Source: Bilabrum cf. latius (taxonomy: Eukaryota). From it: 64,000 nucleotides of DNA. The stretch covers positions 1,178,001-1,242,000 of the forward strand of contig OZ237739.1 of assembly GCA_965178125.1 (NCBI GenBank), written 5' to 3'. The notes beneath the pieces were generated by a model that was given only the letters and a program-made list of their open reading frames with translations, did no database searches and had not been told where the DNA came from. The position numbers were made by a program, and so were the translations under genes. This document shows, piece after piece, positions 7,164 to 37,012 of this stretch; positions within the stretch are counted from its first letter, which is position 1; each line of letters starts with the position of its first letter.

Positions 7164-7231
<68 letters not shown>

Positions 7232-11475: not shown

Positions 11476-12267
11476 CCCCCCCGCTACGGTAATAAATAAA
11501 TTTATTCCCTTCGGTTAAGGAAACAAGTTTCAATAGTTCCAGTCCATCAGAGCTAAAGCTCTTCAGTCCATTCCACTCCTTTTGTCGCTAGTCGCTCCAA
11601 AAGTCAAGGAAACCTCTATAAAAGATATAGTACAAAAAATGCTATTTATATAGTATATTATAACATTTCTTGTACCGGGGCTTTTGTTAGAAGGTCAAAT
11701 GGGACTTTTGGTGTTTTAGTATAAAATAGTCCCTTCATTTTAGAAGGGTGATTATTTGACCTTCTAAAGTTCAATGTAAATTTATAAAATTAATTCAAGT
11801 TCAATCATTAATGAAGGTAAAGCAATAAAATTATATATTTAGAATGATTATCTAAGGGGTACCCCTTGAAATGGTAATTTAGGGCTAAATAGAATATTAA
11901 ATATGATAATAATGGGTCATAATAGTATTTAATTTAAAAGAATATATTGATAAATAATAAATATATGATATGAATGTATAAATATTAAAAAAAATGAAAA
12001 TGAATATTGAAGTTGAAGTTCAGTATATCTTAGGAAATGTTGGTCTTTAAAAGTATATGTATAAATAAAAATGAATGTGAATATTCAAGTTCAGTATTAA
12101 TTCTCATTACGTGGATTACTCAAGTTTGTGAAGGTGTTATGGGACTCTAGCCATTTTCTAGCCAAAAGTTCCATCACTTTATGGGACTCCATTATTCAAC
12201 CTTCTAAACTACCTTCATTATACCCCCTTATCCTCGCTTATACCTTCACAAATGGAACAAACGCGCT
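11476..12267 (+). repeat. Left terminal inverted repeat (792 bp)
   Basis: Reverse complement of 36221-37012; no mismatch noticed in the parts checked by eye. Confidence 0.97.
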
Positions 12268-12549
12268 ACAGCAACTCGCTACACTCGTCATCGTCAAAAT
12301 GAACCTGAACCTGAATATTGGAGTTCAGCATTTCTTAGGAAATATGATGGTCTAACCAACAGGATTTAATATTAAAGTTTAAACCTTTATTAAGGGTGTA
12401 TATGTTTTAAAGTATTAATCTATGCCTATACATCACATAACCCCCATCATAACCCTAGCCTATAGGCTAGGGATAACCCCCACATAACCCCCCCCCCCAC
12501 CTCTAAGCGTTTTTTTAAAACTCAAAAATTATAACTTAGTATTATAGAT

Positions 12550-13311
12550 ATGAACTTTAATAATTATGTCATTGAAAATCCCGTCCTAATGAAGCAGATT
12601 TATAAGGCTACAGACCATATTACGGATAGCACGCAGAAAATTTTAGAGACCATTACTACGTATGTAGATTTAGGTGGTAAGTTTTCCACGCCTAAATTAA
12701 TTAATAAAAATATAGTTAGTGATATTAAAGAGAAAAAAGCCGTGAAAAAACCCAAGAAAGAAGAGAAACAGAAGACACAACACGATAATAACGACCAGCT
12801 TGAAATTAAGCAAACATACATTCTAGATAAATTTAATGACTATAAACCACAGAATAATAAAACTTATAATGATGTAGATGATTTACAACCGCCAGAATTA
12901 ATTAGATAGACCGCAATAATTCACGAAGGTGTTGAAGATGATAGTGATGATAGTCAAAGTGTAAATACTGAACAGGACTAGATTGTGGCGGATAGTGATA
13001 ATGAGGAAGAAACAGAGAGCAAATTAGAACTAATAGGAGATTTAAAGAGGTTAGATGATGGAGATTATCGTTTTTAGGTTATAGTAAATGGGAATATAAT
13101 TAAATTTGGTGATTCACACTTACCAGACGTTGAATCGCTTAGAAATCGTTTTAGTTCAAGAAAAATTCAAATTATGATATCAAAAATCAAAAGAAATTTT
13201 AGTATTAACGATAATGACGATATACATACGGCTGACTTTTGGAATTATAATGTCTATTTGTCCTGTGATTACAAAAAGGAATATAATAGACTCAGAGAAA
13301 TTTATAATTAA
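12550..13311 (+). CDS. Virophage hypothetical protein, 253 aa (TAG=Gln)
   Basis: Open through 3 TAGs to TAA. The C-terminal IKFGD...TADFWN resembles the motif in the 17803-18510 protein. Confidence 0.75.
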
Positions 13312-13381
13312 AATTTTCGTTTTTAATAATTTTATCGTGGCTTAAAAATAAAATTATTATATATATTATAAAATATATAGT

Positions 13382-16141
13382 ATGTCATCAAAATAGTTAA
13401 TAACTTTTCCACTTAAACATAATCAGGATGTCCCCGATGTCAAGAATTGGAAATATGTAAATAAAGTTATCCCTTAGAAGTTTAAAAATTAGAATATAGG
13501 AATGATAACGGGAGAATAGAATAATATAACAATATTTGAGTTGGAGGTATAGAAATGGTCTAAAGAGCATTCATTTATTGAAGCATTTGGAAAGGATTAT
13601 ATAAAGAGATTCAATACAAGAACAATTAAGACAGCAAACGGGCAGTATCACTTATATTTTGAATATAATTAGAATATTCTTACAACCAAGAATAAGGATG
13701 TTCAAATCAAAATAAGAAATGACGGGGCATATGTTCCTATTCCTCCCAGCTCAATAAATTATGATAAATATGAAGTTATTAACGATTCTAAAATACAAGA
13801 ATGTCCCAAAGACTTATACGATTACTATAGTAATATAATTTTAAAATCATCCAAGGCATCAAATATAAATGAGGCATCAAAAAAGAACGAAGTAAATTAC
13901 AAGGATATGAATAACTGTATGTTAAGCTTCAACTTAGAAAATAAGGACTGGGTGATAATACTAAATAGACTTAATGATAAATATCTAGAAAACTTCAAAG
14001 ATTGGTATAAAGCTACAGTAGCAAGCAAATATTTAGGTTTCAAAAAAGAATGGAACGAGTGGAGTAAAAAGGGAAAAAAATATAATTACGTTGATAATAT
14101 GAAAGTTTGGAATTCAATCCATCATTTTGATAAACTAAAAACATTTAATACTGTTAATATGATTATCAAAAATGATGATAGCAGTGTAAAGTTTTATTTA
14201 AAAGACAAATATTATGGTAAATGTTTTTATAGACCTCATATAGAAAATGTAGATGGATTCATTGAAATTAATAAACCCAAATTAGATGATATTAACAAAC
14301 CTGAAAGATTTTTTAAGTATGACCATAATTACATTATAAAAAGTGATACAGGAACTGGAAAGACCACAGCATTCAAGAAGTATATACAATAGATAAAGAC
14401 GCCTTTTATCTCTATAGTTTCAAGGGTTTGTTTAGGGAGTGAATAGTATAGAAGTTTTAAAGATGAAGGGGTAGAATGTGAATTTTACTAGAATAAAAAA
14501 TTTGATTTTGGTTAGAGCCTTATTATTACACCCGAAAGCTTACCTTAGATTGTAAATTATGATTTTTCAAAATATGTAGTATTCTTAGATGAATTTAATA
14601 GTATTATAGAACACATTTTAAGTTCTTCAACAATGAATAATAACCGCGTGTTAGTTCTGTTTATGATACAGAAAATGATTAGAACTTGTAAATAGTTTAT
14701 TGCTGTAGATGCTGATATTAGCTAGGTTGCGATGAAGTTTGTGAAGAGTACAGGCGTTAAATACAGATATTATAAGAATATTTATAAACATTTCAATGGT
14801 GTAGATGTATATTTTGATAAAGATTAGTAGGAGTTTTATGATAAATTAAAAGCGGAAGATAAATTTATCCTCTCTTGTGATAGTAAGAAGAATGCGGATA
14901 CATTTCATAAAATGTTATGTAAAGATGGAATAGAAAATATAAAATTGATTACAAGCGATTTATTACCTAGTGAAGAAATTGATTTAGATAAATATGATAA
15001 GATAATCTTTAGCCCGAAGGTGATTTACGGGCTAGATAGCACTATGGAGAGACCAGTTTATGGTCTTTTCAAAGGTGAAACTATATTACCTACTCAAATG
15101 ATACAGTAGCTAGCAAGATGTAGAAACCCATCTTATATAAATATCTTTTTTGAATGCGTTCAATCTACATATCCTGAATATGAATCAATGAGTGATGCTT
15201 GTAGTAAATTATAGATGGAAATTAATGCTTCTTGTAAGATTTATAGAACATTAGAACAATACGAACAAAAATGCCTAAAAGAAAATGGATTAGAGTATGA
15301 TATTTTAAAAGATGATGATGATGATAGAATATTTAAATTAATGTATAATGCGAGCACTAAAATATATATTCCACTAAAACGATTATATAATTATAAAGTT
15401 GATACGTATAACACAAATAAATATATTCATTTATAGAAAATATTAAGAAATAGGGGATTTAATGTTATGGTCGATAGACAATTACCAACAAAAATTAAAG
15501 GTGGATAGATAGCATCAATCATTAAGGAGCTCAAGAATGAAAAGATTGAAAAATTTGAGTATGAGAATGAACACATCTAGAGAAGAATAAATATATTAGG
15601 AATTCCTAAAGAATCAATTGATGAAGAGCTAAAAGAGTTTCTCATTGATAATTATAGTTTGTAGAATTATTTTAATTATGCTAGCTTTAAAAGAAAAAAT
15701 AAATTTACTATTTTATCTGAATTGAAAGATAGGCGTGATTTTGAGGATGAAAAATTTAAAAGTGATAAAAATAAGATAGTTTTATTATTTGATATGTTAT
15801 AGATTTTAGGATTAAGTAAGTTTGAAATCAATTATAAACGTAAAAATGAAATATCTAATAAATATAGAAAAATAGGTAAAAGATATGTTGAAACGGTTGG
15901 AGCTAGAATGAAAAAACCTATTGAGACGGATATAGAATTACACGGAGCAATAATAAAATTATATAAATAGCTGTTTGGATGTATAAGCTCAAAATGGGGT
16001 AAGGCGAAAAAAGAGGATGTAAGATAGGTAAAGGTTAGTTTTACGAAAAAGAAAGACTTATTTGAAAGAGTGTATGAATTTTAGTATAACGATGATAATA
16101 TTAATCTTTATAAAACTGAAAATTTAAGATTAGATTAGTGA
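13382..16141 (+). CDS. Prim-Pol-like primase / PriCT-2 / origin-binding-protein-like SF2 helicase fusion, 919 aa (TAG=Gln)
   Basis: NIGMITG, KTANGQYHLYF, IRNDGAYVPIPPS; EWSKKGKKY; SDTGTGKT, FLDEFNS, DAD, SPKVIYGLD, Q*LARCR. Three track ORFs share one frame; ends TGA. Confidence 0.88.
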
Positions 16142-16494: not shown

Positions 16495-16552
16495 TACCTT
16501 TTTTATGTGTTTAAAATAACTTAAACATTATATATTTATATAATATATAGTG

Positions 16553-16855
16553 ATGAGCGATATTTAGAGTTCAAGCAATACAGAGGAGCAACCAAAAATT
16601 AATTATATGTAGGAATATTACAAAACAAACAAAGACAAATGGAATAAAAAATATTTAGCTAGAGGAAATGAAAAAGTTAAATGCGATGTGTGTGATTGTT
16701 ATTATAGAAGGAAGGACAGAACGAGACACGAACGAACGAAGAAACACCAAAAAAATCTCAAAGAACCAAAAAAGGATATACTAGAGGAATATATCAAAAA
16801 ACTTAATCAAACCCTGCTTAATAGCGGGATTAAACCACCGGAGATATCAATTTAA
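16553..16855 (+). CDS. Zinc-ribbon/C2H2 protein, 100 aa
   Basis: KVKCDVCDCYYRRKDRTRHERTKKH, two TAGs, TAA stop. Confidence 0.75.
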
Positions 16856-16895: not shown

Positions 16896-17749
16896 TCAAC
16901 CTTTAATAACCATCCAATTAGCGGACCAATCATTAGAGGAATTACCACCCGTTAAATGAATCGTAAATCCATCGGTTCCTGCTACTACGTGGGAAAATTC
17001 AACCGGCTCACTGGCGGGGGTGATTGTAGTAATAAAAACCAAATCACTAGAAGTCATACCCGGAACACTAGCAAATTCAGTAGCACCTCCACCACTCCAA
17101 TTTACCCTTCCTTTATGCGCTACGGTGTTATTTGCTACTACTTCACCTTTTACGGTTAAATCACATTCGTGCCCGTCTTCATCAAAACTCATAACTAAAC
17201 CAGCAGATGCGGTATTGGCACCGAATCGTAAAGCTTCACCCGAAGTGATGTAAGAAATACCCTTACTGTCAAGATGTAATCCTGCGTTGCTAACAACTAC
17301 ATCACTACTATTCACAACAGCATTTACATATAGACCACTACTATCTAATCTACCAGTTGCGACATTCTTACATTGAATAGATATGATGCCAGAGTGTACG
17401 CGCAACCTAGTCTCGTTAACAATCAGACATGGCAAGACCTGACAAAGCTGTGCCTGTGCGCGACCCTTGACCGGACTGACCGGGGCTGGGAAGAGCACGT
17501 GCACTACTCCGCCGAGGAGGAGGGGGTTGGGAGGGTGGGCAAAAATTACCCAATCTCCGCCCCTCTCCTGAACACAGAGAGGGTATGCGCGTCATCGCAA
17601 GCAATCCGTTGGCTTGGTCGCACCTTCCCGGTCGCAACCGCCATCGGAACCCAACGAGACGTTCACGCGCTCCCACTCTGGCATCAACACCGAACCCCAT
17701 CCGGCGTTAGGATCATATCATTAGGTTGCGATAATCTTGCTAAGCTCAT
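16896..17749 (-). pseudogene. Putative fiber/structural protein (173 aa when repaired), interrupted by a GC-rich insertion
   Basis: Deleting 17385-17716 gives MSLARLSQPNDISIQCKNV...DGFTIHLTGG...ANWMVIKG in one frame; beta-rich, Gly/Ser/Val-rich. Confidence 0.7.
17385..17714. mobile_element. 330-bp GC-rich insertion inside the virophage
   Basis: Host-like GC content in AT-rich DNA, flanked by AT on both sides, with a 13-bp inverted repeat TGATGCCAGAGTG (17384-17396) / CACTCTGGCATCA (17674-17686). Confidence 0.75.
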
Positions 17750-17802
17750 TTTTTGTATATATAAATAAGAGAAAAACTAAAACTTATATCAAACCTATAA
17801 TA

Positions 17803-18510
17803 TTAAACTTTCATTAATTTTTTAGCTCTATCTACGGCGTCCATAAAGCTATCTTTTAATGTTGGTTCATTCCATAATACAAACCTAGACCAAAAAGCGG
17901 GGGATTTATAGTCTTTAAAGTCTTCATTTATTGAATGTCTTTTAATATAATTTTTCTTTTTACGGTTTGCTTCCTTCTCTCCATCTTTATTATAATATTG
18001 TATAAAGTCCATATAAGGGGTACCATCATTCTTAATTCCACCAAAATGAACAGTAAACAGAATATTATTACCTTGAACTACTTTAATCATATATTTTTTA
18101 TTTGATTTAGTTGATTTATATAAATTAAAAACTGGTTTAGGTCTAAATGATTTCACGTGTCCGTTATTAAATTTTTCCTTCATTGCTTCCTCTATTTCTT
18201 CCGTGTCTAATTCTCCAAAGGTTAAAGGGGTCTCTTTATTTATTCTTTTAGTGGGTCTATATATATCTCCTTTTTCCTAATATCCCTTTTCTCCCTTCTA
18301 ATTCTTCCAATCCTCTAATTTCCACCTTCTTAAATTTTTCTATGCTTCATTTAATTTAATTTTATCATATGTCCCCCCTAGTTTTTTATAACGAGCAAAA
18401 TATGCTAATGAACGATAAGCTGAAGGCTTTTTATACGTTCTATTTACTTCTTGGATTGCTTTTTTGTAAATTTTAGGATTATTAATATAACTAGGTATAT
18501 TATCATTCAT
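17803..18510 (-). CDS. Two-domain basic protein of giant-virus/virophage type (DUF5872-like plus DUF5754-like), 235 aa
   Basis: PSAYRS..YKKLGGTY..LRRWKLEDW..YRPTKRINKETP, then VHFGG..DFIQY..SPAFWSRFVLW. Family names are from motif recall only. Confidence 0.7.
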
Positions 18511-18704
18511 TTGTATAATTAATAAAATGATAATTTTTTAATAGCGTGAGCCGTTTTCTTTCTATATTCTTCATAGAGTCTTTTATTATTTGGATTCTTC
18601 ATTAATTTATTTTTTACCTTCTTTAATGCCTTCTTAATAGCATACTAAACAAAGATATTACTAATAATATTAATCATATATTATATAATAAATAAATATT
18701 TAAT

Positions 18705-20204
18705 TCAAAGCATTAAACCGCCTTTTTTTCCTTTCCTTGATATAATTTCTTCTTTTTCATTTACGACCATTAAATCATTCTATCCGTGGATAATTAATTT
18801 CTATCCTTCTTCATTAATCTATTCTTTTTTATATTCACCTAATTCTTTACCTACTTTAAAATTTAATCTTTTGTTAAATGTGATACTGTCGGTGTGAATT
18901 CGTATAATATGTTTAGCGTTGTTCTTATTCACTTTCTTCATCAATCGTTGTCTTCCATATGCCAGAATAAAAGGTTTCAATTTTCCCCAGCTATATTTAA
19001 AGGGTACTTTATGTTTCAAATGATAAATAAATTCTCCGTCATTATCCATTTCTACACGGTCAATATCAAATTTATCTATATTTATTTTTTTATCATCTTT
19101 TGATGTAATTGTCTTTTTAGAGGAACTACATAATTTACCCCATAATGAATTTAATATTTCTTTTGCTAGATATGATTTGCTTTTTAATTTGTAGAACATT
19201 GAGACATAGGATTTAAAAAGTGTTTCACCTTTGATATATTTATCATAGGTCATAAAATTAAATTCGTCGCTTGACATCTCTATCTCACACCCATATTTAA
19301 CAAACATATTCATATCAGTAAAGACATAATAAGTAAATTCATTTTCAAATACCTTCATCATTTGAAAGATATTCGGGTCGCATTTTCCACGGCTTACCTT
19401 ACATTTATAAATCCCTATTTCGTTTTTATTATTAATCTATTTATTATCAATTGTTTTATAAATAGGATTTCCATATGGTAGTAGTGAATTAGATGACATA
19501 ATGGCGGGGTAATGACTATTTATATCGTAGGTGATAAACTCCTCATATTGTCCCTTCTTGTGATATTGAATCCCGCCACGCGTTGAACCTTCAATAAATA
19601 CCGCTTCCTCTGGGGTTATATCTGGTGGGCTATCTATCATCATATTAAACATTGTAAAGAAATGAAGGGCTGTTTGTCTGATTCCATATTTCATTACATC
19701 TAATGATGGGTTCTCGTCGTGTAATTCATCACTTGCTATACTCAGCCTTAAGCTCCATTCTTTGATATCTTCATCCTCTGGGCATTCGTGAATGGTGTAA
19801 TGAAGATAATATTTCTTTGAATGATAATCGGTTAGGCTCTCAACTCTATATTTATCTTTTTCAATTATTTCGGCTTTATCGGTTAATTTAACAACCATAG
19901 ATTTATGGCACCGCACAAATAAAGGTTTCATCCTCTAGACGGCTTTAAATGAACCATCTTTATATTCTAAACAAACCCTTTTAAAACTCTTTTTTTTCCT
20001 ACTTAGATAATAGACCTTTATATCGTCTTTCTCTCTAATCTCTATATCCATTTTTAAACCTGAAACAAGTTTATAAAGGTTCTTTGTAGTTATGGGCTTA
20101 CCGTTAAATACCTTTTCTAGATACTTCACGGATTGAATGGGGTTATCATACTTTTTACCAAAGCATATATTTAATTGATTTAACACATTTTCGTAATTTA
20201 TCAT
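18705..20204 (-). CDS. polB: Protein-primed-type family B DNA polymerase, compact, 499 aa (TAG=Gln)
   Basis: STRGG, YDINSHYPAIM (motif A), KEILNSLWGKL (B), IHTDSI (C), LGEYKKE. Three track ORFs join in frame; TGA stop. Confidence 0.88.
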
Positions 20205-20282
20205 TTCCTATAGTATATTATATTTAATATATTTTTAAGCCATTTTAAACACATATTATAAAGTTTAAATTATAAAATGTAA

Positions 20283-20624
20283 TTATTGTTTCGGAGCAGT
20301 GAGGATTAATATAAATCTCTTCACTTGCTCATCACTTAAGAAGGTATAGCGAGAAGAAGGACTGAATAACATTACATCATCCTTTAATTTAAATGGTGAA
20401 CCAGTTCGCCAGCCTATGGGGTAGAGAGAACTAACATACGCATCATAATTTTTTAAATGGGGCTTTTGTTTTAATAACCTCTAGATATATTTTTTTAATA
20501 AAGTCTTCATTTCTAAATCATTATATCCATCATCTGGACGAGGAGGGAACACGAAATTATATACGGGCTTATTGTTTTTAACAAGTTGAGTTCTAACAAT
20601 TTGAATATCACTTAATTTAACCAT
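20283..20624 (-). CDS. Hypothetical protein, 113 aa
   Basis: ATG to TAA with one TAG; upstream GCTTAAA motif. Confidence 0.6.
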
Positions 20625-20671
20625 TTTTATATATATACTATAGATATTTTATTTTTAAGCCAAATACACGC

Positions 20672-20688
20672 GTTTAAAATGACTTAAA
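20672..20688 (+). promoter_or_regulatory. Recurrent viral upstream motif GTTTAAAATRRCTTAAA (representative copy)
   Basis: Full or partial copies lie about 30-45 nt upstream of the starts at 13382, 16231, 16553, 20204, 20624, 20717, 22136, 22743 and 36151. Confidence 0.75.
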
Positions 20689-20716
20689 GATTTTATTTTA
20701 TTATAATATATATAGA

Positions 20717-21262
20717 ATGTCAAAATTTGAGAGTTATGAACCAAGCGAATTAATGGAACTTTTAGAAGAGGGAGCCGTAAAGAAAGCCAAGAAATATATT
20801 AATCAATTCTTCTTTAAAACTTTTAAAGGGATATTTTTTAATAATACCGTAGAAGATAAATTTGAACTAGTGGATGAAGACGAATTAAATGGTTTGTATC
20901 TAACCCCTGATATGAAAACCGACAGTGCCAAAAATCCATTTGTTCCATACATTTATATGTTTTCTAGTGAGCCCCCGATTTATTATACAGGAAATTTTGA
21001 GAGTAAAGACCCCATAATGACAATTAAAAAGAAGGACAAACCCATCAAATATATTAATTTGTCATACGGTCAATTTATACCCGAGGAAGTAGAGGAACCA
21101 GAAGAAGAAGAAGAACCAATAAGACCCAAGAAAAAGACTAAGAAGAGGAATAAGAAGAAACAAAAACGTGATAATAATAGAAATGTTGATAAACCAGATG
21201 ATGAAGATGATGATGAAGAAACCTTTAGAGACCAACTAAACGAGGCATTAAAAGATTTCTAA
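20717..21262 (+). CDS. Hypothetical protein with acidic/basic tail, 181 aa
   Basis: Open ORF with the GTTTAAAATGACTTAAA motif upstream. Confidence 0.75.
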   Translation: MSKFESYEPSELMELLEEGAVKKAKKYINQFFFKTFKGIFFNNTVEDKFELVDEDELNGLYLTPDMKTDSAKNPFVPYIYMFSSEPPIYYTGNFESKDPIMTIKKKDKPIKYINLSYGQFIPEEVEEPEEEEEPIRPKKKTKKRNKKKQKRDNNRNVDKPDDEDDDEETFRDQLNEALKDF

Positions 21263-21321
21263 ATAATTTAATATTTATACTAATATTAAATATGATATCT
21301 TTATTAATAATTGAACACCTT

Positions 21322-21512
21322 GACCATCTAATAAAAGGGCTAGAATATTAAAATATATATGGTTATCTCTATAATAAAATCCATACGATGGCTATATCCA
21401 CAAATTGCGTATTAGTATATGTATTATTTAGCAAAACGTGGATGGATTAGTTTTATGAAGATGATTTGATTGATATCGTATTTCTAGCCCAAAAGTTCCA
21501 TCACTTTAGAAG
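21322..21512 (+). repeat. Internal inverted repeat, arm 1 (partner about 25841-26034)
   Basis: TAAAATCCATACGATGGCTATATCCACAAATTGCGTAT and flanking blocks recur as reverse complement. Confidence 0.85.
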
Positions 21513-21584
21513 GTTGTAATATAGCCCCTTCTAACTCCCATCATCACTATGTTAAATATTAATTTTATCATTAATATCTAATTA

Positions 21585-22136
21585 TTATTTACCAATATGA
21601 CATTTATAACAAATTGAATATTTCATATCTTTAATTCTAGACACTCCGCATTTTTTACACGCCTTTTTACCATATTTTGTAATCGTATAACAAGACTTAC
21701 AGGTTGTCCTCCAATCACTTCTAAGCATTTTACAAAGACACACATCACATCTTTTTTCATTCCTCTTTTTTTCCTCTAACTTTTTCTATTTCTTTTCTAA
21801 CTCAATATGTCTTATTCCTTCACAGTGCTTATTATATCGGTCTCTTGCGACATCCTTTTTACATATTCCACACCACTTATATAAACATTTTTTACGAATT
21901 TGATTTTCTTTATCCTTTATCATCTACTTTATACAACTAGAACCCACTTTAAAAACATATCCACTAGGGGTATGCTCTATTTCGTGCTCGGTTCGTATCT
22001 CGTGCCCACAAATACAATTACCCAATTTATCACCTTGAATAACGGTTGAGCCAATATGAATTAATTTCTTCTAAATGTCCATCCATTTTATATTACCGGT
22101 ATGTTCCTATATTTGTTCAATACACTTTTTACACAT
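21585..22136 (-). CDS. Cys-rich multi-zinc-finger protein, 183 aa
   Basis: CICGHEI...VGSSCI, CGIC..H..H, CDVC, CKSC, CKKC, CYKC; 4 TAGs; TAA stop. Confidence 0.8.
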
Positions 22137-22290
22137 TCTCTATATAATATCTATATAATATAATCTTTAAGTCATTTTAAACGCGTTATATTATAAAAAA
22201 GGGGCTTAAAAAATAGACACTATTGATATAGATGATTATATTAATTAATATTATTAAAATATTAATTAATTAGACCGGTTAAATAGTTCT

Positions 22291-22401
22291 TTGGAAAGTA
22301 TGAACCTACTTTGAAAAGTATGAACCAACTTCGGAAAGTATGAACCTACTTTGAAAAGTGTGAACCAACTTCGGAAAGTATGAACCTACTTTGGAAAGTA
22401 T
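22291..22401. repeat. Intergenic 20-bp tandem repeat x5.5 (TYGRAAAGTRTGAACCWACT)
   Basis: Exact 20-bp period with alternating variants. Confidence 0.95.
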
Positions 22402-22452
22402 CATTCACAGGTCATATATTTATTTAATATGTATAAATAAATAATAAAATGA

Positions 22453-26034: not shown

Positions 26035-26041
26035 GGAGTAT

Positions 26042-26617: not shown

Positions 26618-26625
26618 TTATATAT

Positions 26626-27696
26626 TCAATAGAGAAATATTTTTTTTGTGCTAACTACATAATTATTATCAACATTAATAGCAACATAACCAAAGAGAGG
26701 GAGAGAATGAAGGGTTTTTTTAATTCGTTTTCTAGTAGGAGCGTCAAAACTTAAGACTGTTTCTAAAATATATTTTAAACTTTTAGCTGTAATTGTTTTA
26801 TAAATGATATGGGTTGTAATTTCGTTCATAATGGTTCGTGTCTTCATACCGTCGCTTATTTTGTGGGTGATGTCTAAAACGCTACTTGCTGTGTGCCTTC
26901 CTGTAGTTGCTAGGATTTCCAATAAAAAATAAGCCTTTGCTTTCTGGTTCCTTTTTTTAAAGCCTTCGTAATCATCCAGAATAAATAAATTAGGTTCAGC
27001 GGTCAATTTTTTAAAAAACTCAACATTTAATTTAAAACCTTTTTCTATTAAATCTTTCTCAGGTTTCAAATCCTCTATCTTTCTTTCAGCTTCAATAACA
27101 ACATCTAAAGGTTTAGATTTCATCAAAGAAGATTTTTTATATTTAAATTCTAATTTCATTTTTTTATAATAAGCCATTTTTTCCTTATATAAAGTGTTTT
27201 CATTCTCTTTAACCAAATCATCTATATCAATGAAGGTCGCGCCTTCTCTTTTATATTTAGGGTCTTGAATTGGTGATATAACATACATATTTTTATATTT
27301 TAATCCTCTATACATCCTTATATAATGTAAAGCTAAATGACTTTTCCCGCTTCCACTCTTACCAAATAATCGCACATATTCACGCCCCTATGGAAAGAGC
27401 ATAGGAAAAGGTAAATATTGACTATTATCTTTAATCGCAAATTCCTAAACTGACCGTATATATTCATCTTGTAATAGTTTATGTAATTGTTCCCTTTTCT
27501 TGTCCTTATCAACGTTATATCTTACTCGGCTTTCTCCGTAATAAGATTTTAAAACATCATCTGTTATCTCTTCCGCTTTGACGTGTTGAATATCTTTAGC
27601 GTTCGGGTCGTAATAAATAAACCGGTTCTATTGTGTTTTTTTATATTTTTGAATAGCTACAATATGGCTATTTTCCGTATATTGTAAAGATAGCAT
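26626..27696 (-). CDS. FtsK-HerA (A32-like) genome packaging ATPase, 356 aa
   Basis: Walker A GKSGSGKS, Walker B LFILDD, TTGRH; extended to the ATG at 27696 through TAGs. Confidence 0.92.
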
Positions 27697-27788
27697 TATA
27701 TATAATAATAAAATAAAATAAACCATTTATTCACACGGGTTTAAAATATTAAGTTGGTTCCTTCTTCTATCCTTCCTCACAAAAAAAG

Positions 27789-28604
27789 TTATAGAGACAT
27801 AATTATATTTTTAATTTCCGCCCGTGTTTTCCTATTTATGTATTGGTCAATCCACGATATTATCTTATTAATATTTGCTTTAGAATACTTTGAAAATTGT
27901 TTTATTATTTCCACATTTCCTAATGCTTTTCTCATTAGTCCTTTTAGGCTTTGAAATGATTTTGACTTCTCGCTTTGATGTCCTTTTATTCTTAGCATAC
28001 TTTCTAATCGCATTCTTATGGAATATAAATATCCTAATGCTTCCCTATCAATTAAATCATTGACTCTTTTTTCATTCCTCTTCTCACCTCTTAATTTAAA
28101 TAAATCCTTCAATCGTTTTAATACTTTAAAATTATTAGAACCAAAATATTTATCTACATCTCTTATTAATCCATCTTTTACCTCGTCCTAATCTATTTCA
28201 TAATCACTTATATGATAAATTATGCTTATTTCATCTATAAATTTTCCATCAAAAGCCCAAAAATCAATTTTTAAGTATGGTTTATCTCCGCTAAATATCT
28301 ATTTATAAATGGTTTTAACGGGTGTAGATATGAATGCTTTTATGGTCTTGTATTTTTTATTACCAGCTTTAACCTCAATAAAATTAACCTAACTTATAAA
28401 AACCTTTACAAATCTTATTAAACTATTTATAAATTCAGGCTCTACCCTCTAATATAAATCTATATCACTAGCAAACAAGGAATAATAAGGAATAGCATAC
28501 GAACCATTTAAAAATAAATTAGCCCCCTTCTTAAAATTCACCTCATCAAATATATCGTTCTCGTATTCATTAAAATAAGCTTGTGTCAATTCATTAATTT
28601 TCAT
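27789..28604 (-). CDS. Pol-beta-type nucleotidyltransferase-like protein (Sputnik V21-like), 271 aa
   Basis: LNGSY...ASDIDL, FIEVKAG, KIDF. Confidence 0.7.
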
Positions 28605-28661
28605 TATATATTATAAGTATGGATAAATAACAAATTATATATACCCAATATATACAATAAT

Positions 28662-29051
28662 ATGAGCGTTAAATAGAGCATAAATGATATGACAAATAAA
28701 AGCCTTCATCATCTTGGAATAAACAGAAATGATTATAAAAAAGAAATTGATAAAATGGTTGAAGATACCGCAAACCAAATATTAAACGCAACCACAAAAG
28801 GAAAGACAAAAGGGGGAGCTGTAAACTTTCTTGGTGGATAGCCGAACGTTCTCGCTGGAGGTCCCAATTATCTCGCTGGAGGAAAAAAGAAGGGTTCAAA
28901 GAAAGCCCCTAAAGCTAAAAAGCCCCGTAGTGCTAAATAGTTAAAGAGGGATAAATTAATGAAATGGTGCCGTCAAAAGGGAATGACAATGAAAGCCAGC
29001 AATGCTTTTATAAAGAAACACGACCTTATGAATAAGGATATTTCATTTTAA
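28662..29051 (+). CDS. Basic putative core protein with repeated xGG motifs, 129 aa
   Basis: KGG, LGG, AGG, AGG followed by a Lys-rich C-terminus; 3 TAGs; TAA stop. Confidence 0.7.
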
Positions 29052-29128
29052 AAGACAGCCTACCAATTGACAAATTATCTCTTAAGTTTATAAATTATTA
29101 ATTATATCATTAATAATATATATATACA

Positions 29129-31198
29129 ATGTCAAACAATACAATTAATGATTTACTGAAGGGTATTATGTAGAAACGGTCTAATCAACTTAGGATACAA
29201 AATGACCCACAAGTTAGATTAATGATATAGCAAGAAGAAGATGAAGCAGAAGCCAGAAGAAAAACCCTAAAAGATGATGCTTTTCTTCGTGCTAATTATG
29301 TTCCTATTGATGTTAGAATTGAAAGACAACAACAACAACAAGGAATTGAAAATATTATTAAAAATATTAAGACTATGAACGCTAAAAAAGAATTACCAAT
29401 TTATCAAATAGAAAATTTACAATCATTTATAAATAGAAATCCAGATTTACCGGATAAATTAAAAAGATAGGTTGTAGATACCATTAATAATATTAATGTA
29501 AGGTAGGTAGTAGGACCAGCAAGCGATAAGAAAAAGGTATTTGATGGAATTAAAAATATTAATATGAGATTATTCACAACCACCAAAGCACAACGGGACG
29601 CAGTATTAGAACAATTACCAAGCGATATGAGAGGATTAAAAGCAGTTCAAATACGAAACGCTTTACGACAAGCTGGAATCACGAAAACCCCCCAAGGATA
29701 GAATGTTTCACAATTAACAAAAGTTGATGACGCTGTTAATGCTTTATAGGATGTTTTAAATCCTCCTGAAGCCGTTCAACAATAGCAAAGAGATGACCCG
29801 CAACCTGATAGACCTGAACCAGATAACCCGCAACCGCCACCAGAACCAAGACCAAAACCCCCTCCAACACCACAAGAAGCATTAAGCCCAGAACTACAAG
29901 AACAAATTGAAGCACTTGAAAGAGTAGCAAACGCCAATCCTTCAAGTAGTAGAAAAGCACCAAAGAAAACCGAACTAGCATCAATACTTAGATAGTCAAA
30001 TGTTAAAGGTGTAAAAGGACGGTCTAAAGTTGATTTTATAAAAAGTGCTTAGAAGAAATTATCAGAACTTAAACAAAAAGCACAAGAACAAGAGGCATCA
30101 CAATCATCAGGACAAGAAGAAGAAGGGGAGAACGCCAGTAGAAATTTATCAGGCTAGTTTTCAAAAGTATCACCCGCACCAGTTCCACCTAGTGGATTCT
30201 TACAAGCATCACCAGCACCACAAGGACAATCACCAGAACAAGAACAAGGACAATCACCAGAACAACAACAAAGCACATTTGGTTCTTTAGGACAATCGGT
30301 TATGGATGGTATCAGTTATTTAACAGGAAAAACAGGCTCACAACCACAAGCACCCCCCGCAGGTCAAGACAGAGGAAAAGGTGAAGCGATGGCAGTAGAT
30401 GAAGATGGAGAACCTATTACAGATGAATTTGGAAGACAACTTACAGAAGTTCAATTCAGACAAAGACAAGCACAGGCAGAACGAGATGAAGCACAAAGAC
30501 AACAAGAAGAAAAAGAAAGACAAGCTAGAGAACGGAGGGGAGCCCCAGATGAAGAACCAAGAGATGGAGAAGCCGTAGAACAAGCACAACCAGCAGAACC
30601 AGCAGAACCACAAGAACCAGAAGAACCACAGAAAACAGATGATGAAATAGCCAAATCAATAGGACAATCAATAAATGTAAAAACAGGTTCAACTAAGGAA
30701 TAGATATTATCACAATTACAAAAAGCTGGAATAAATCCAGTAGAATCAAAAACCGCAACTACATTAAAATATATTGTACGAAGGCTTAAAGCCGGAGTAT
30801 TACAACCTAATCTACCACCTGAGAGAATCGCTGATTTAGTAGCCAGAGCAAATACAGAAGGAAGAGATACAAGAGCAGTTAGTAGACAAGCAAAAAGTAT
30901 TCTTACTGATAACGGTTATCAAATGGATGGAATACCTATATGGACATATTCACCACCAGCTCAAGGTTTCGGAAATAAAGACCCTTATAATATGTTAATG
31001 AAAGCTATTAATTTAATTATTGATTAGAAAATAAAAACATAGAACAGGGGCGGTAGTTGTGGATGTGGCAAGCATAAAGGAGGACAAATTGAACAAGAAT
31101 ATTTTAATGTAGCCGGTGGTAAAGGTAATCATAATGTGAAGGACAAGGTAAAACAAATCTTATATCAACACTTTGAAAAACTAAGATTATTAAAATAA
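29129..31198 (+). CDS. Large Gln/Glu/Pro-rich protein, 689 aa, possible virion core protein
   Basis: One frame with only TAG interruptions; CAA CAA TAG CAA run; C-terminal RGG, KGG, AGG. Confidence 0.8.
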
Positions 31199-31243
31199 TT
31201 AGTCTATAGGATAATAATATTTTGTTTTGTATAGATATATATA

Positions 31244-31861
31244 ATGGCAGAGTTAGTAGCAACAGCAAGCACGGTTGGTGGGGTGTTGGTTCCTCTAGGA
31301 TATGCGGGATGCTTCCTTTGGAACTTATGTTCCTCACTTGCGAATCGTAAAAAATTGTGTTTAGTCCTTCCACGAAAAGGAGGTAAAAGTTCACTTAACA
31401 AAAGTTTAACGTCTATAGACCCGAATATTCTATTAGTTGATTTAGATGAAGTCCTTAAAGTTAATGCTGACACCAAACAGGTCGTACATTTGAATGACGC
31501 CGAAGCTAGGGGCGACGTATCAACAGCCAAACTTTTAAAATTTGAGCTTATGAAAAAAAGCATTGAGAAAGTTAAATCAAATTGGTTATAGAAAGCAGAA
31601 CATAGAGCCGTCTTTCTTACTTCAGATTTTGACCTAGCAAAAGAAATATTCAAGCCCTCCAGCGTGTGTGTAGCAATACCAAGCGATAAACTATACAGCA
31701 ATATCTCTAAAGATTTAGACGAGAAGGATAAAGCAGTAGCTAGACATTCACGAGCTGAATTTTTGAAGAGCTTTAACCCTAATGAATATAGCGTATATAA
31801 TACCTTTGAAGGGCTTTCATAGATGGTGATGTCAGTGTATAATATGACGTATAGAGTTTAA
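31244..31861 (+). CDS. P-loop kinase-like protein with hydrophobic N-terminus, 205 aa
   Basis: LVLPRKGGKSSL, LLVDLD; 2 TAGs; TAA stop. Confidence 0.65.
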
Positions 31862-31959
31862 TTTTAAAAACTGATTTTCTTAGAATATACTTTAAGTATA
31901 AATAGAATAAAAAAGGCTTATACAGAAAACAACTATTAACAATATAAAACAAATATAAA

Positions 31960-32667
31960 ATGCCTGATTATTCAAAAGGGAAAATATACCGGCTGTATTC
32001 TTTAAAAGACCCATCATTACAATGCTATGGTTCAACCTGCTAGACATTGAGTTAGAGAAAAGGGGGACACATTAGAGCATATAAACAATACATTGAAGGG
32101 AAGCGACACTACCAGACATCATTTAAAATAGTTGAATTAGGCGATGTTAGAATTGAATTAGTTCAATGCGTAAATTGTAAGAATAAGGAAGAGTTGTTAA
32201 AAATTGAAGGTCAATATATTCGTGATAATGAGTGTGTTAATAAGCGTATAGAGGGAAGAACAAGAAAAGAGTATTATCAAGATAATAAGGAAAGAATAAA
32301 AGAATACTTAGAGAAGTATCGTAAAGACAATGAAGAAAGAATAAAAATTAAAGTGAAAAAATATAATAAGGAGAATGAAGAAAGAATTAAACAGATTAAG
32401 AAAGAATATAACCAAAAAAATAAAGAGAACATTAGTATGTAGTTGAAAGAGTATCGTAAAAATAATAGTGAAAGAATCAAAGCAATGGAGAAAAAATACC
32501 GTGAGGACAATAAAGAAGAACTTAAAGTAAAATCAAAAATCTATTATGAAAAGAATAAAGCCAGACTATGCGAGAAAATTAAGTGTGATATATGTGGATG
32601 TAGTGTATCAAGACAAGGAATGAGGCGCCACCAAAAAACGAAGAAATGTAAAGACTCTAGGGTCTAA
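31960..32667 (+). CDS. GIY-YIG endonuclease with C-terminal zinc ribbon, 235 aa
   Basis: YSKGKIYRL..CYGSTC*TLS*RKGGH..IELV..EELLKIEGQYIR..CVN; CDICG..RHQKTKKC. Confidence 0.9.
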
Positions 32668-32674
32668 TTATTTG

Positions 32675-32704
32675 AATATTATTAAATAATAAATTAATAA
32701 TATT
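32675..32704. terminator. AT-rich hairpin between convergent GIY-YIG and integrase genes
   Basis: AATATTATTAA / TTAATAATATT stem; a similar hairpin lies at 16865-16887 between convergent genes. Confidence 0.5.
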
Positions 32705-33861
32705 TATTTAGTCTTATTATTAAAATTATCCTTTAGAGTTTTTGATATATTTTTAGCCGGCTCCGTTGTTATCTTCCATTGAATTAAATATTCATCTTGT
32801 CCCTCTTTATTCTTTCTTCTCTTTATTATTTTACCTATATCATTCTAATATTTTCTTTTAGTAGCCTCATCAACATATGAATCTTTCCATTTAACCCTGT
32901 ATGTATTATTTTTATTCTTTCTTATCAATTTTTCAATTATAAATATATCTTGTGCTTTATTCTCGTATGGTTTAGATGCTAATAACAACTAATCTCTATT
33001 AAAGTATGTATAGGGTATGCCCTCAATTTTATATAATGGGGGGTTATCTGGTTTTATTATTACTCTTTCAATTTTATAAGGCTTTACGCTATATTTAATA
33101 TCTCCCGCCCTAAATGCTCCGGTTTCCTTTATCCCTTCTATACTTCTAGGATAATCTAATCCTATTCTTACCATTTCGCCCTCATTTAATACATCACATA
33201 CTTCACCCTAACATCTAGGCGGTATATATGGTAGATTCTCCCTTTTCTTATTCAACATTTCCTATCTTGTTTTATAACGCTCGTTTAATATCTCCCTCAA
33301 CTTTGGTATTAAATGTCTCCAGTTCGTAATAGTTGTCCCCGTTCTTATCTCCTATGAATTCAAATAATAAAATATAGCTCTCCCTATTTCCTCATTCAAT
33401 CTCTCCACCAAAGCCATCTACGATTTACGCTTCACTCTTGAAAATATATGCTCTATCTTATTCTTCTTTAGATATTCTTTAAATGATTCATTATCAAATT
33501 CTCCCCCTTTATCTGTTCGTATCATTTTAGGTTTCATTAAATAATTTCTTTTATAGATTTTTTGAAAAGCTTTTATCACATCCTCCGCCCCTCTATCCTT
33601 TAACTCTTCAAAATCTAACGCTAATCCGCTAGTATCTATCACAACTAATAAATATTTTGAATCGTTCTTGGTAGCGTAAGGGAGATACAATAAATCAGCC
33701 TATTGGATAAGCCCCTCTTTAGTAGGTTTATAATATTTAACATAATTCAATCCTTTCGGTTTCTTTATCGGCTTCATTAAATCGTTCGTGATAGACTTCG
33801 TATTAAATCCAAAACTTGATTCATTAATATCATTATCTTTTTTCTTTCCTCTCTTACTCAT
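32704..33861 (-). CDS. int: Retroviral-type (rve) DDE integrase with C-terminal chromodomain-like segments, 385 aa
   Basis: Q*ADL, YLLVVID, IRTDKGGEF, LVERLN; FIIEKLI..YRVKWKD and IIKRR..EYLIQWK..EPAKNI. Confidence 0.92.
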
Positions 33862-33901
33862 TATATATATTAATTGATTTTAATATTTATAAATTAATTA
33901 T

Positions 33902-34273
33902 TCACGAATTAAAAAGCCTATTAATAGCTTCATTCGTTTTAATGTGCTCCTTGGTGTCTCTTATCTCCTAATGGATATCAACCAGCTTTAATTTTTCTTT
34001 CTTAGTGAGTCCGTTCATCCTTCCTTTTAATGCTTTTAAAGTTTTCATATAAGGGGCTATAGCTTCTGCTTTCTTTTTGCTCACCTCTTTATATTCCACA
34101 TTAAGAGCGGTTAATTTACTATTCACTTTATTTTTTAATTCTGTCTCTTTTATTTTTAGTTGCTTTAACTTTTGTTCTAATTCACGATTGGTCTTCTTAA
34201 AGTCTTCTACAATATCAAGAAATTCATTCTTTAACTTTGAGCGGGTATTAATCACTTTTTGTAATTTATCCAT
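33902..34273 (-). CDS. Coiled-coil protein, 123 aa
   Basis: Track ORF extended through TAG to TGA. Confidence 0.65.
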
Positions 34274-34283
34274 TTATATATAA

Positions 34284-34613
34284 TTACTAGATATTTTTTT
34301 TATTTTTTTTAAACTTCATTTTAACTCTTTGTAATTCTCGTGCTATTTCTAATTCCATTAATCCCCTTATTATTCTGCCATCGTGATAATCCTAAACTGA
34401 ACAATGAATCAAATCATTCTAAACTGCCGGTAAAGGTATTCTATACATCAATTCATATTTAATAATCTCAAGCGTTATTCTGCCTGTTCTCTTCTTCAAA
34501 GCTACCCCTAATAAGAGCGGTATTTGTTTATCAGAAACTCTTTTGAATGTCCCTCTAACTATTTTTAATATTCTGCTTATACTCTAATCTGTATAAATTG
34601 CTCTAAAATCCAT
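34284..34613 (-). CDS. Hypothetical protein, 109 aa
   Basis: ATG to TAA with TAGs only. Confidence 0.5.
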
Positions 34614-34716
34614 CGGTATATACTAAACCTATATTTTTTTTATTTATTTTTTAAACTATAGAATTTTATAAAACGGGTTTAATAAATTAAAATAAAATAT
34701 TGGGCTACATTATAAT

Positions 34717-35133
34717 ATGTTCGTTAAGTTCCTGTTATCAAGTGTCAACGTTAAAAAGGTACTCAAGAATAAAAGCATCTCCACTTTTATGTCAATCGTA
34801 TATATTTATGTTGAGAAGCACAAACCATCAATGTTAAAGCATTTTCAACTTGATGACCTTCGTGTCCCTCCAGATTGTAATGAACGACTTAAAAAAAGAG
34901 TATTAAGTGAATTTGAAGAAATTGATTATATATCATATTTCGTTCAACCATTTAGAATAATACACAAGCTAAATGAAGAAAATGTTGAATGCCTAAGTGA
35001 AGACTTAAATGATACCGTAGCCATAGATTTATTGGTTAAAAAAGAGAAGGAAGCCATTGAGAAATCAATAAAGAAATAGAAGGATGACATCATCAAAAAG
35101 GCTATAGATGACTTTATCTTACCCAAGGATTAA
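34717..35133 (+). CDS. Hypothetical protein, 138 aa
   Basis: Track ORF extended through TAG to TAA. Confidence 0.65.
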
Positions 35134-35183
35134 ACTATATATTAATAATAATAATAATAATAGTATTATTAAAATTCAAAAAT

Positions 35184-35531
35184 TTATTCTAAAAACTCAA
35201 TATCAAACCATTCATTTGAATCATCATATTCTTCAGCATACATCAACGATAATTCTATATACTCTTCTAATTCACTATTAGTAAGGTTATCAATTTCTTC
35301 TTCTTTCAATAGTTTGAAATCGGTTCCGTTGTCATCATTAAAACTTTCAACTTGACCTTCTGCTTCCTTTTTATATTCTTCTTTCCAATTATCACTCCAT
35401 ACAACTCTCTTCGCTTGGTCTTTTAAAGTGTCAGTATAAAGCTTTTGTGCTTCTTCCTTATTATTAAACTTTTTAACCCAGTGTGTATGATAACATTCAC
35501 TACCCCACGCTAATGATACAATATAAACCAT
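35184..35531 (-). CDS. Acidic hypothetical protein, 115 aa
   Basis: Open ORF ending in TAA. Confidence 0.65.
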   Translation of the reverse strand: MVYIVSLAWGSECYHTHWVKKFNNKEEAQKLYTDTLKDQAKRVVWSDNWKEEYKKEAEGQVESFNDDNGTDFKLLKEEEIDNLTNSELEEYIELSLMYAEEYDDSNEWFDIEFLE

Positions 35532-35572
35532 ATCTATAATAATTAAAAGTAAAATAATTATTATAATAAAAC

Positions 35573-36151
35573 TTAATTAAAATTATCCTCTATCTCTTCT
35601 CGCTCCTCGTTATCCAATACCCATTTTAATCTTGAAGGGTGCCACGCTCTAGAAATTAATTCTTCTTTATATTTTTTTGTTGTCTCAATTATCTTATCTT
35701 TTCTATTTTTCCAATACCTGTTATCAGTTAGCGTATATATTATGTTCTCTGATATAGTCTCAAAACGTTTTACTTTCTGTTTATGGTTCTGGATTATTGC
35801 TTTAATCTCGGGAGAACGTGAAACCCGCTCATTTATTAAACTCTGAATACTCCTCCTATTTCCATAATATCTTAAATGTTCTATTTCACTATTAGTTAAT
35901 CGGTTTTCTTTTACTTTTCTCATTTTAGATATTGTATCCTATTTGATAATCCGTAATTTTATTTTCTAATACTTTTTTAATACAAGGTATAAAATCTACT
36001 CTATAGCTTCATCCTCATTATCATATAAATCACATAGATAATTATATCGTTCCCAATGGACTCGCTCAGCTTTTCTAAGAAATGTTTTAGACGGTCTAAG
36101 CTCCTTTCTCAAACTCATAGATTTTTTGGTTAATAGTTCTAAGAAATCCAT
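35573..36151 (-). CDS. Hypothetical protein, 192 aa, with C-terminal KEEL..AWHPSR motif
   Basis: Extended upstream through 3 TAGs to the ATG at 36151; promoter motif upstream. Confidence 0.7.
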
Positions 36152-36220
36152 TCTGTATATACCTATAATAAATATATTTTTTAAGTCAATTTAAACGCTC
36201 TATAACAATTTAAAAATAAA

Positions 36221-37012
36221 AGCGCGTTTGTTCCATTTGTGAAGGTATAAGCGAGGATAAGGGGGTATAATGAAGGTAGTTTAGAAGGTTGAATAATGGA
36301 GTCCCATAAAGTGATGGAACTTTTGGCTAGAAAATGGCTAGAGTCCCATAACACCTTCACAAACTTGAGTAATCCACGTAATGAGAATTAATACTGAACT
36401 TGAATATTCACATTCATTTTTATTTATACATATACTTTTAAAGACCAACATTTCCTAAGATATACTGAACTTCAACTTCAATATTCATTTTCATTTTTTT
36501 TAATATTTATACATTCATATCATATATTTATTATTTATCAATATATTCTTTTAAATTAAATACTATTATGACCCATTATTATCATATTTAATATTCTATT
36601 TAGCCCTAAATTACCATTTCAAGGGGTACCCCTTAGATAATCATTCTAAATATATAATTTTATTGCTTTACCTTCATTAATGATTGAACTTGAATTAATT
36701 TTATAAATTTACATTGAACTTTAGAAGGTCAAATAATCACCCTTCTAAAATGAAGGGACTATTTTATACTAAAACACCAAAAGTCCCATTTGACCTTCTA
36801 ACAAAAGCCCCGGTACAAGAAATGTTATAATATACTATATAAATAGCATTTTTTGTACTATATCTTTTATAGAGGTTTCCTTGACTTTTGGAGCGACTAG
36901 CGACAAAAGGAGTGGAATGGACTGAAGAGCTTTAGCTCTGATGGACTGGAACTATTGAAACTTGTTTCCTTAACCGAAGGGAATAAATTTATTTATTACC
37001 GTAGCGGGGGGG
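36221..37012 (-). repeat. Right terminal inverted repeat (792 bp)
   Basis: Reverse complement of 11476-12267. Confidence 0.97.

Follow-up and report, generated by a model that had tools for sequence, protein, structure and literature searches.

The subject of this study is a 64-kb window of DNA from Bilabrum cf. latius (64,000 nucleotides of contig OZ237739.1, assembly GCA_965178125.1; all positions below are those of the window) and an island within it at 11476-37012. The island is 25,537 bp long and has a GC content of ~30%, while the surrounding host DNA has ~62%. It is very probably an endogenous mavirus-like virophage in which TAG is a glutamine codon, and which shares the translation system of a TAG-decoding host. 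An integrated virophage had been proposed in a first-pass annotation, and this is borne out by terminal repeats, a 5-bp duplication, empty insertion sites, a penton protein scoring above its Pfam cut-off and a profile match for the capsid protein.

Stop codons and reading frames of the element

Open reading frames (ORFs) were called from ATG with TAG as sense and a minimum length of 90 amino acids (aa), which gave 25 ORFs with 6771 codons covering 80% of the element. In total, 110 TAG and not a single TAA or TGA were found in frame, in agreement with the earlier claim that the viral genes are interrupted by TAG and end in TAA or TGA. The terminators were TAA in 19 ORFs and TGA in 6; TAG was present in 22 of the 25, and none needs TAG as terminator. 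In the other two frames of the same stretches, 790 TAA and 513 TGA were counted, and all ORFs could be read without assuming any frameshift. TAA and TGA have been kept as terminators, with none in frame in the 6771 viral codons or in 3913 codons of neighbouring host genes described below. NCBI table 15 is a code of this kind, with TAG as sense (Gln) and TAA and TGA as stops.

When the element was read in the standard code, 10 stop-to-stop frames of at least 150 codons were obtained (1996 codons in total, the longest 253). Reading TAG as sense, as the first-pass annotation had suggested for re-calling, gave 19 such frames with 6500 codons, the longest of 929. With TAA as sense there were 29 frames of at least 150 codons (5687 codons in total), none longer than 309, and with TGA as sense the longest stop-to-stop frame was 284 codons. 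The same annotation held that the element would be missed by standard gene calling; its genes are indeed fragmented in the standard code, but an integrase with all 385 aa is already present in a public collection (P0151, see below). TAG is used in every module, that is, replication, capsid and integration, and amounts to 1.6% of all codons of the element. The glutamine codons of the element are CAA (167), TAG (110) and CAG (22), which gives TAG a share of 37%. TAG has largely replaced CAG, presumably because in an AT-rich genome a C-to-T change from CAG to TAG is silent under a TAG=Gln code.

Integration and virophage gene content

The coordinates of the element coincide exactly with the outer ends of an inverted repeat of 792 nt, and both terminal repeats are abutted on the outside by a target-site duplication of 5 bp (AATAC):

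11471-11475, left copy of the target-site duplication AATAC, read directly from the sequence
11476-12267 (+), left terminal inverted repeat, 792 nt, 100% complementary to 36221-37012
36221-37012 (-), right terminal inverted repeat, 792 nt, complement of the left one
37013-37017, right copy of the target-site duplication AATAC, the identical 5 bases beyond the right end

An empty-site query of 34 nt, consisting of the left flank, a single AATACC and the right flank, was searched across the window and occurred five times elsewhere (one exact and four with one mismatch, compared with 0.00 expected). These five empty target sites are located in sister copies of a ~4.5-kb host repeat. No contig piece bridging 37012/37013 was present among those listed (32 of about 1,470), and the junction thus rests on the window itself together with the duplication and the empty sites. 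Typical marks of an integrating mavirus-like element were found: the rve integrase, the inverted repeats at both ends, and the short duplication of a target that also occurs as empty sites. The rve integrases of mavirus and Polintons make duplications of 5-6 bp (PMC8547959). The element is integrated, with a 5-bp duplication, in a repeat unit of a GC-rich eukaryotic chromosome, where its rve integrase inserted it.

The host DNA at 1-11475 and 37013-47000 forms a higher-order repeat of ~4.5-4.7 kb per unit, one unit of which is occupied by the virophage. Each unit has an array of 87-bp (29-codon) tandem repeats, ~63 copies overall with 90-97% identity, and the GC skew of the higher-order repeat is ~ +0.2 throughout. 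A further copy of the target site lies in inverted orientation at 48425-48458.

For comparison of the gene content we used 74 related loci (L001-L074), which are virophage-sized IMG/VR contigs found with an alignment of helicase homologues. The genes by which the element was classified, together with an ORF at a conserved position and a nuclease gene, are as follows:

13382-16141 (+), primase-helicase, 919 aa, 26 TAG; Pfam Prim-Pol 35.8 bits and PriCT_2 23.5 bits, both above cut-off
22791-24680 (-), major capsid protein of a divergent virophage type, 629 aa, 9 TAG; profile match
24752-25705 (-), penton (minor capsid) protein, 317 aa, 5 TAG; Pfam V18-19 (PF21507), 29.2 bits against a cut-off of 27
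26042-26617 (-), cysteine protease, 191 aa, 6 TAG; H73, D90, Q140 (TAG) and C149 invariant in 7/7
26626-27726 (-), P-loop ATPase in the position of a packaging ATPase, 366 aa, 3 TAG; P-loop GKSGSGKS
27789-28604 (-), ORF of 271 aa, 4 TAG; directly upstream of the ATPase, corresponding to mavirus MV14 by position only
31960-32667 (+), GIY-YIG-type nuclease gene, 235 aa, 3 TAG; phmmer E 1.6e-21 to L074:19681-20061
32704-33861 (-), rve-family integrase, 385 aa, 7 TAG; Pfam rve 45.6 bits against a cut-off of 32.6

The primase-helicase has 1176 homologues in a library of 1.84 billion proteins, the best being 47% identical over the full length. The capsid ORF was aligned with a profile of five metagenomic capsid proteins, whose genes were taken from related contigs where they adjoin a penton gene; hhalign gave a probability of 95.9% and an E-value of 5.5e-9 over 441 columns, and each of the five proteins itself matches Pfam Sputnik_MCP_1st and MCP_V20_C with E-values down to 6e-75. 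The penton gene is located directly upstream of the capsid gene, and six penton relatives likewise adjoin capsid genes in related loci. The protease, which we take to belong to the adenain-like clan, had no Pfam match, and a sequence search of PDB returned matches at chance level only. Three relatives of the ATPase were found in virophage-sized loci, with E-values down to 1e-11, while its Pfam AAA matches were all sub-threshold. No homologue of the 271-aa ORF was found in Pfam or in the 74 loci. The relatives of the nuclease in L074 and L050 themselves pass Pfam GIY-YIG. The C-terminus of the integrase is chromodomain-like (Chromo 23.2 bits, below cut-off), and single-protein scans of viral contigs returned no relative of the integrase or the ATPase. 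The profile check proposed by the first-pass annotation was thus successful for the capsid protein, whereas Pfam failed to recognize capsid protein and ATPase above threshold and gave nothing for the protease.

On the minus strand, the order of the 271-aa ORF, ATPase, protease, penton and capsid protein is the morphogenesis order of mavirus (PMC8547959). The capsid and penton proteins match Sputnik-type families and not those of polintons. The class of Sputnik/mavirus-type virophages is Maveriviricetes.

A promoter-like motif of 17 nt, GTTTAAAWTRRCTTAAA, was found six times in the window compared with 0.02 expected, and all matches lie inside the element:

16509-16525 (+), 20234-20250 (-), 20672-20688 (+), 22166-22182 (-), 22772-22788 (-) and 36180-36196 (-), copies of GTTTAAAWTRRCTTAAA

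Each copy is co-oriented with a gene and ends 27-29 nt before its ATG. A TATATA box is found within 20 nt of the start codon in 17 of the 25 genes, compared with 6.8% of all ATGs of the element. The upstream regions suggest that two putative promoter classes are present in the element. The core of GTTTAAAWTRRCTTAAA, AAAATGA/AAATTGA, presumably resembles the mimivirid early motif AAAATTGA. Upstream motifs shared by the genes of known virophages copy promoters of the helper giant virus (PMC8547959).

A second candidate, WCTATAGW, occurred 6 times compared with 2.4 expected and was dropped as not enriched, since 5 of 100 shuffles also reached 6. A scan of the left end for sigma-70 promoters and terminators gave results at chance level and is not relevant to a eukaryotic virus. 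The genes carrying GTTTAAAWTRRCTTAAA are mostly on the replication side, and the capsid-module genes are without it, having only a TATATA box near the ATG.

Three results weigh against classification as a virophage: the capsid protein by itself matches Pfam MCP_V20_C only weakly (E 0.0036; 17.2 bits where the cut-off is 27), a word-based homologue search with it found none, and no giant-virus sequence was seen in the 64-kb window. An AlphaFold2 model of the capsid protein, built from an alignment of 6 rows, had a mean predicted local distance difference test score (pLDDT) of 43.4 and a predicted template modelling score (pTM) of 0.32, too poor for comparison of folds. An autonomous polinton-like virus or transposon, needing no giant virus, would be compatible with the missing giant-virus sequence. 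Polinton/Maverick elements, too, are characterized by an rve integrase, by long terminal repeats and by a 5-bp duplication, and the possible polymerase-B-like ORF described below would be a further mark of them. We consider such an element unlikely in view of the Sputnik/virophage-type penton and capsid proteins and the mavirus gene order, and of the six genes with the 17-nt motif at fixed spacing, as in virophages that match the promoters of their helper (PMC8547959).

Glutamine at TAG codons

The residue encoded by TAG was read from alignments with homologues in which circularity was avoided by setting TAG to X or by excluding the query from the counts. For the helicase, 150 homologues were aligned and log-odds were computed in a Codetta-like manner from those 19 of the 26 TAG columns in which 100 or more homologues were represented. 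Glutamine scored +17.9 bits and the next residue, glutamate, -12.5 bits, and as a control 13 of 13 sense codons were decoded correctly. Pooled over the columns of the helicase, the share of glutamine was 0.17 at TAG, 0.16 at the gene's own CAA and CAG codons and 0.03 in the background; TAG does not fall on random residues, which the first-pass annotation had named as evidence against its reading. TAG codons facing glutamine include 355 (139/149 homologues), 438 (82/150) and 576 (146/148), the last being the TAG at 15107 that had been assigned to glutamine of helicase motif VI.

The integrase was tested with 12 homologues of 27-34% identity after P0151 and P0152 had been dropped as too close, and six of its seven TAG columns were usable. 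Glutamine again scored best (+8.4 bits, next methionine with -5.3 bits), in line with the result that the first-pass annotation had anticipated from code inference on the viral genes. Codon 54, the TAG at 33700-33702 for which that annotation had proposed glutamine, faces glutamine in 11/12 of these distant homologues, codon 148 in 10/12 and codon 291 in 12/12. P0152, an integrase 74% identical to that of the element, has glutamine at 6/7 TAG sites and arginine at one. P0151, which is 98% identical, has glutamine at 7/7; it does not count as independent evidence. In the protease, TAG codon 140 (26198-26200) coincides with the invariant glutamine of the H-D-Q-C set in 7/7 aligned sequences, the window's own included, which upholds the earlier assignment of this TAG to the oxyanion glutamine. 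A run of CAA CAA TAG CAA, CAACAATAGCAA, was also correctly described, being in frame at 29777-29788 inside an ORF of 689 aa. The alignments of two independent gene families, helicase and integrase, show that TAG is read as glutamine in the element.

Some observations speak against glutamine as the only meaning of TAG. Among the helicase codons, 57 faces tyrosine in 99/139 homologues, 901 arginine in 99/140, 448 aspartate in 90/150 and 378 aspartate in 70/140. In the GIY-YIG gene, the TAGs at 32041 and 32053 are located as first described (codons 28 and 32), but the proposed glutamine columns were not recovered, codon 28 facing glutamine in 2/7 and codon 32 in 0/7 sequences, with arginine in 4/7. 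Integrase codon 148 faces tyrosine in 2/2 tblastn matches, in contrast to the protein alignment given above, and all the evidence for code and life cycle presented here is DNA sequence. The helicase ORF ends in TAG followed by TGA (16139-16141), and TAG might terminate there. TAG may have a dual or context-dependent meaning, acting as stop or sense according to context or being read through by near-cognate tRNAs inserting tyrosine, lysine or glutamate; several TAG columns facing conserved tyrosine, arginine or aspartate and the TAG-TGA end of the helicase would fit this, and Blastocrithidia and some ciliates provide examples of ambiguous codes. Mismatches to other residues are expected for any codon, however, because the homologues are only 25-47% identical, and glutamine is ahead by ~30 bits in the helicase and ~14 bits in the integrase. 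With the share of glutamine at TAG columns equal to that at CAA/CAG columns and no ORF needing TAG as terminator, an ambiguous or partly different meaning of TAG appears somewhat less probable even than a polinton-like element.

TAG in neighbouring host genes

Three GC-rich host ORFs in the right flank (46-64 kb) are open only with TAG as sense:

51579-55598 (-), host ORF of 1340 codons, 9 in-frame TAG and no TAA or TGA, ending in TAA
55851-60395 (+), host ORF of 1515 codons, 5 in-frame TAG and no TAA or TGA, ending in TGA
60567-63740 (-), host ORF of 1058 codons, 11 in-frame TAG and no TAA or TGA, ending in TGA

Together these 3913 codons contain 25 TAG, 0 TAA and 0 TGA in frame, compared with 53 TAG, 17 TAA and 127 TGA off frame, TAG being equally frequent in frame and off frame. 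The longest frame of the right flank has 484 codons in the standard code, and 200 first-order Markov simulations with TAG as sense reached a maximum of 550. TAG makes up 25 of the 156 glutamine-type codons in the three ORFs. Host genes also read through TAG and share the reassignment, as had been claimed by describing the element as adapted to its host's code, the residue itself being read for the element only. Searches with the host ORFs gave neither a Pfam family nor a word-based homologue nor a relative in PDB, so that the host residue at TAG is not readable from them. That it is glutamine would be an assumption carried over from the virophage.

Because neighbouring host genes read through TAG, the element would use the translation system of the host. 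The host presumably has a tRNA-Gln(CUA) and a release factor that ignores UAG, neither of which lies in the window.

In TAG-recoded phages (crAss-like and related), a suppressor tRNA is often encoded in the phage genome, and the code of the host is the standard one. The element resembles them in having genes that are unreadable unless TAG is read as glutamine, and it could likewise be that the virus alone is recoded in a standard-code host, with a suppressor tRNA of its own or of a giant virus. The density of TAG is also higher in the element, at 1.6% of codons, than in the three host ORFs, at 25/3913. TAG-recoded bacteriophages are mentioned in PMC11502894. In contrast to such phages, the host flank is also recoded here, three host ORFs needing TAG as sense. 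No tRNA gene was found in the element or in the whole 64-kb window, and TAG occurs in all gene modules, not only in late genes. Recoding of the virus alone is very improbable on these grounds.

Related loci and copies of the element

No in-frame TAG was found in the helicase of any of the 74 related loci, a single TAA being present in two. There is no recoding in any of these metagenomic loci as judged from their helicase sequences, and the recoding is therefore derived in this lineage. The helicase is common to at least 74 virophage-sized contigs, of which only ~6 have a penton or protease recognizably related to that of the element, and an integrase related to its own was found in only 2; replication and capsid modules have thus been shuffled between lineages.

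Contigs from sequencing runs of two organisms, given by code and belonging to two studies, contained 0.86-0.94 of the sampled words of the element. When compared with 17300-37299 they showed few differences, for example 7 in 4482 bases for run X5. Run X8, from another sample of organism B, had next to none of the words, in pieces of 37-41 nt, which is not proof of absence. From 40 listed of 301 copy differences, 14 in a single diverged block at 18450-18471 and four outside the called ORFs (18511, 18513, 18690 and 21310) were dropped. Of the 22 remaining in called ORFs, 14 were synonymous and none was on a TAG; in an ORF of 499 aa, 5 of the 7 listed differences were synonymous.

The perfect terminal repeats, open genes and mostly synonymous copy differences suggest that the element is recent and probably functional. 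Although premature stops in protist endogenous virus genes are often due to artefact or decay (PMC10120064 and PMC8547959), a decayed or pseudogenised element or assembly errors with stops that happen to be TAG are refuted to near certainty by 110 interruptions that are all TAG, with 0 TAA/TGA against 790/513 off frame and no frameshift, by TAG on invariant glutamine columns, by terminal repeats identical over 792 nt, by copy differences that are mostly synonymous and by near-identical contigs from independent runs.

Two parts of the element vary between copies. The first is an insert in an intergenic spacer:

17383-17714, GC-rich insert, 332 bp, 60% GC, with 12-nt inverted ends GATGCCAGAGTG / CACTCTGGCATC

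The best-supported contigs of runs X1, X2 and X5 skip the insert by joining 17382 to 17715, and in X1 the depth bin with the insert was ~8x the rest of the virophage. No other copy was found in the 64-kb window. The insert resembles a small host transposon of high copy number, which would have inserted into this copy of the virophage. The second is the GIY-YIG gene, which some copies lack; in contigs without it, 20 other nucleotides take the place of the stretch between 31831 and 32658, and the depth in X1 was 158 for contigs skipping 31832-32657 compared with 52 for the contig with the gene. This fits a mobile, homing-type gene inside the virophage.

Additional features of the element

The remaining ORFs of the element are:

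12550-13311 (+), ORF of 253 aa, 3 TAG; no Pfam match, no relative in the 74 loci
16553-16855 (+), ORF of 100 aa, 2 TAG
16896-17192 (-), ORF of 98 aa, no TAG; no Pfam match
17803-18510 (-), DUF5872-family protein, 235 aa, 3 TAG; Pfam PF19197, E 2.6e-22; 19 relatives in the 74 loci
18705-20204 (-), ORF of 499 aa, 5 TAG; no Pfam match, no relative in the 74 loci
20283-20624 (-), ORF of 113 aa, 1 TAG
20717-21262 (+), ORF of 181 aa, no TAG
21585-22136 (-), Cys-rich ORF of 183 aa, 4 TAG; no Pfam match
22453-22743 (-), ORF of 96 aa, 2 TAG
28662-29051 (+), basic ORF of 129 aa, 3 TAG
29129-31198 (+), Gln/Pro/Glu-rich ORF of 689 aa, 13 TAG and 65 CAA
31244-31861 (+), ORF of 205 aa, 2 TAG; no Pfam match
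33902-34273 (-), 34284-34613 (-), 34717-35133 (+), 35184-35531 (-) and 35573-36151 (-), small ORFs; no relatives in the 74 loci

By eye, the motifs YDINSHYPA, KEILNSLWGK and IHTDSI were recognized in the 499-aa ORF, which may contain the palm domain of a family-B DNA polymerase. An Rfam scan of the 64-kb window gave no match. An inverted repeat of ~205 nt (79% identity) at 21310-21513 and 25840-26046 flanks two small ORFs, the capsid gene and the penton gene, and may be a site of recombination or inversion. A 28-nt piece of this repeat recurs in both terminal repeats, at 12155-12181 and 36307-36333.

Comparison with known systems and implications

The closest parallels are the endogenous mavirus-like elements (EMALEs) of Cafeteria burkhardae and mavirus itself (PMC8547959). 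These are likewise low-GC virophages of ~20-25 kb in high-GC host DNA, and they have in common with the present element terminal inverted repeats, short duplications, an rve integrase and a primase/helicase, as well as the order ATPase, protease, penton, capsid protein. Host mobile elements in intergenic spacers of the virophage and type-specific upstream motifs are further likenesses. Unlike the element described here, in which every gene module has TAG as a glutamine codon, they use the standard code. Further differences are the very divergent capsid protein without a word-based homologue, the upstream motif GTTTAAAWTRRCTTAAA in place of the TCTA of mavirus, and a GIY-YIG gene that is missing from some copies.

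Endogenous polinton-like viruses of Streblomastix strix similarly are integrated double-jelly-roll viruses that follow the stop-codon reassignment of their host (PMC10120064). The code of S. strix reassigns both TAA and TAG to glutamine, whereas TAA is the main terminator here (19/25), and its elements cluster with Metamonada polinton-like capsid proteins, whereas the capsid protein here is of Sputnik type. The nuclear code of Iotanema spirale shows the same pattern as the element, with UAG as glutamine and UAA and UGA as stops, but UAG makes up ~8% of its glutamine codons, (PMC5304391), compared with 37% in the virophage. Some giant-virus genomes from metagenomes annotate better under alternative codes (PMC13524828). 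Full-text literature searches turned up no publication that describes a virophage using a non-standard code. Low-GC provirophages, viruses that follow the code of their host and UAG-only glutamine codes are known already; a virophage in a UAG-only code is new.

By analogy with mavirus and the Cafeteria elements, the virophage would remain dormant in the host chromosome for as long as the cell is not infected by a giant virus. For such a dependence, the upstream motif common to six genes is the one indirect hint in the window. The transcription machinery of the giant virus would then recognize the shared upstream motifs and switch the element on, whereupon it would replicate, form capsids and could re-integrate elsewhere. 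Virophages and giant viruses use host ribosomes, so a changed host code forces the viruses to follow, and the helper giant virus would have to cope with the same code. A wider proposal is that the rare UAG-only glutamine code has so far gone unrecognized in the lineage of the host and that virophage, a putative giant virus with matching promoters, small host transposon and mobile GIY-YIG gene have shifted together with it; we advance it tentatively and rate it slightly short of an even chance.

The element flags a eukaryote with a rare UAG-only reassignment and predicts a giant virus written in the same code. Elements of this kind can be under-counted in surveys of endogenous virophages, since gene calling in the standard code breaks them up. 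If the whole nested system has indeed shifted, a virophage with TAG at 37% of its glutamine codons would be inexpressible in standard-code cells, and the genetic code would act as a host-range barrier that isolates the triad of virophage, giant virus and host from the 74 standard-code relatives.

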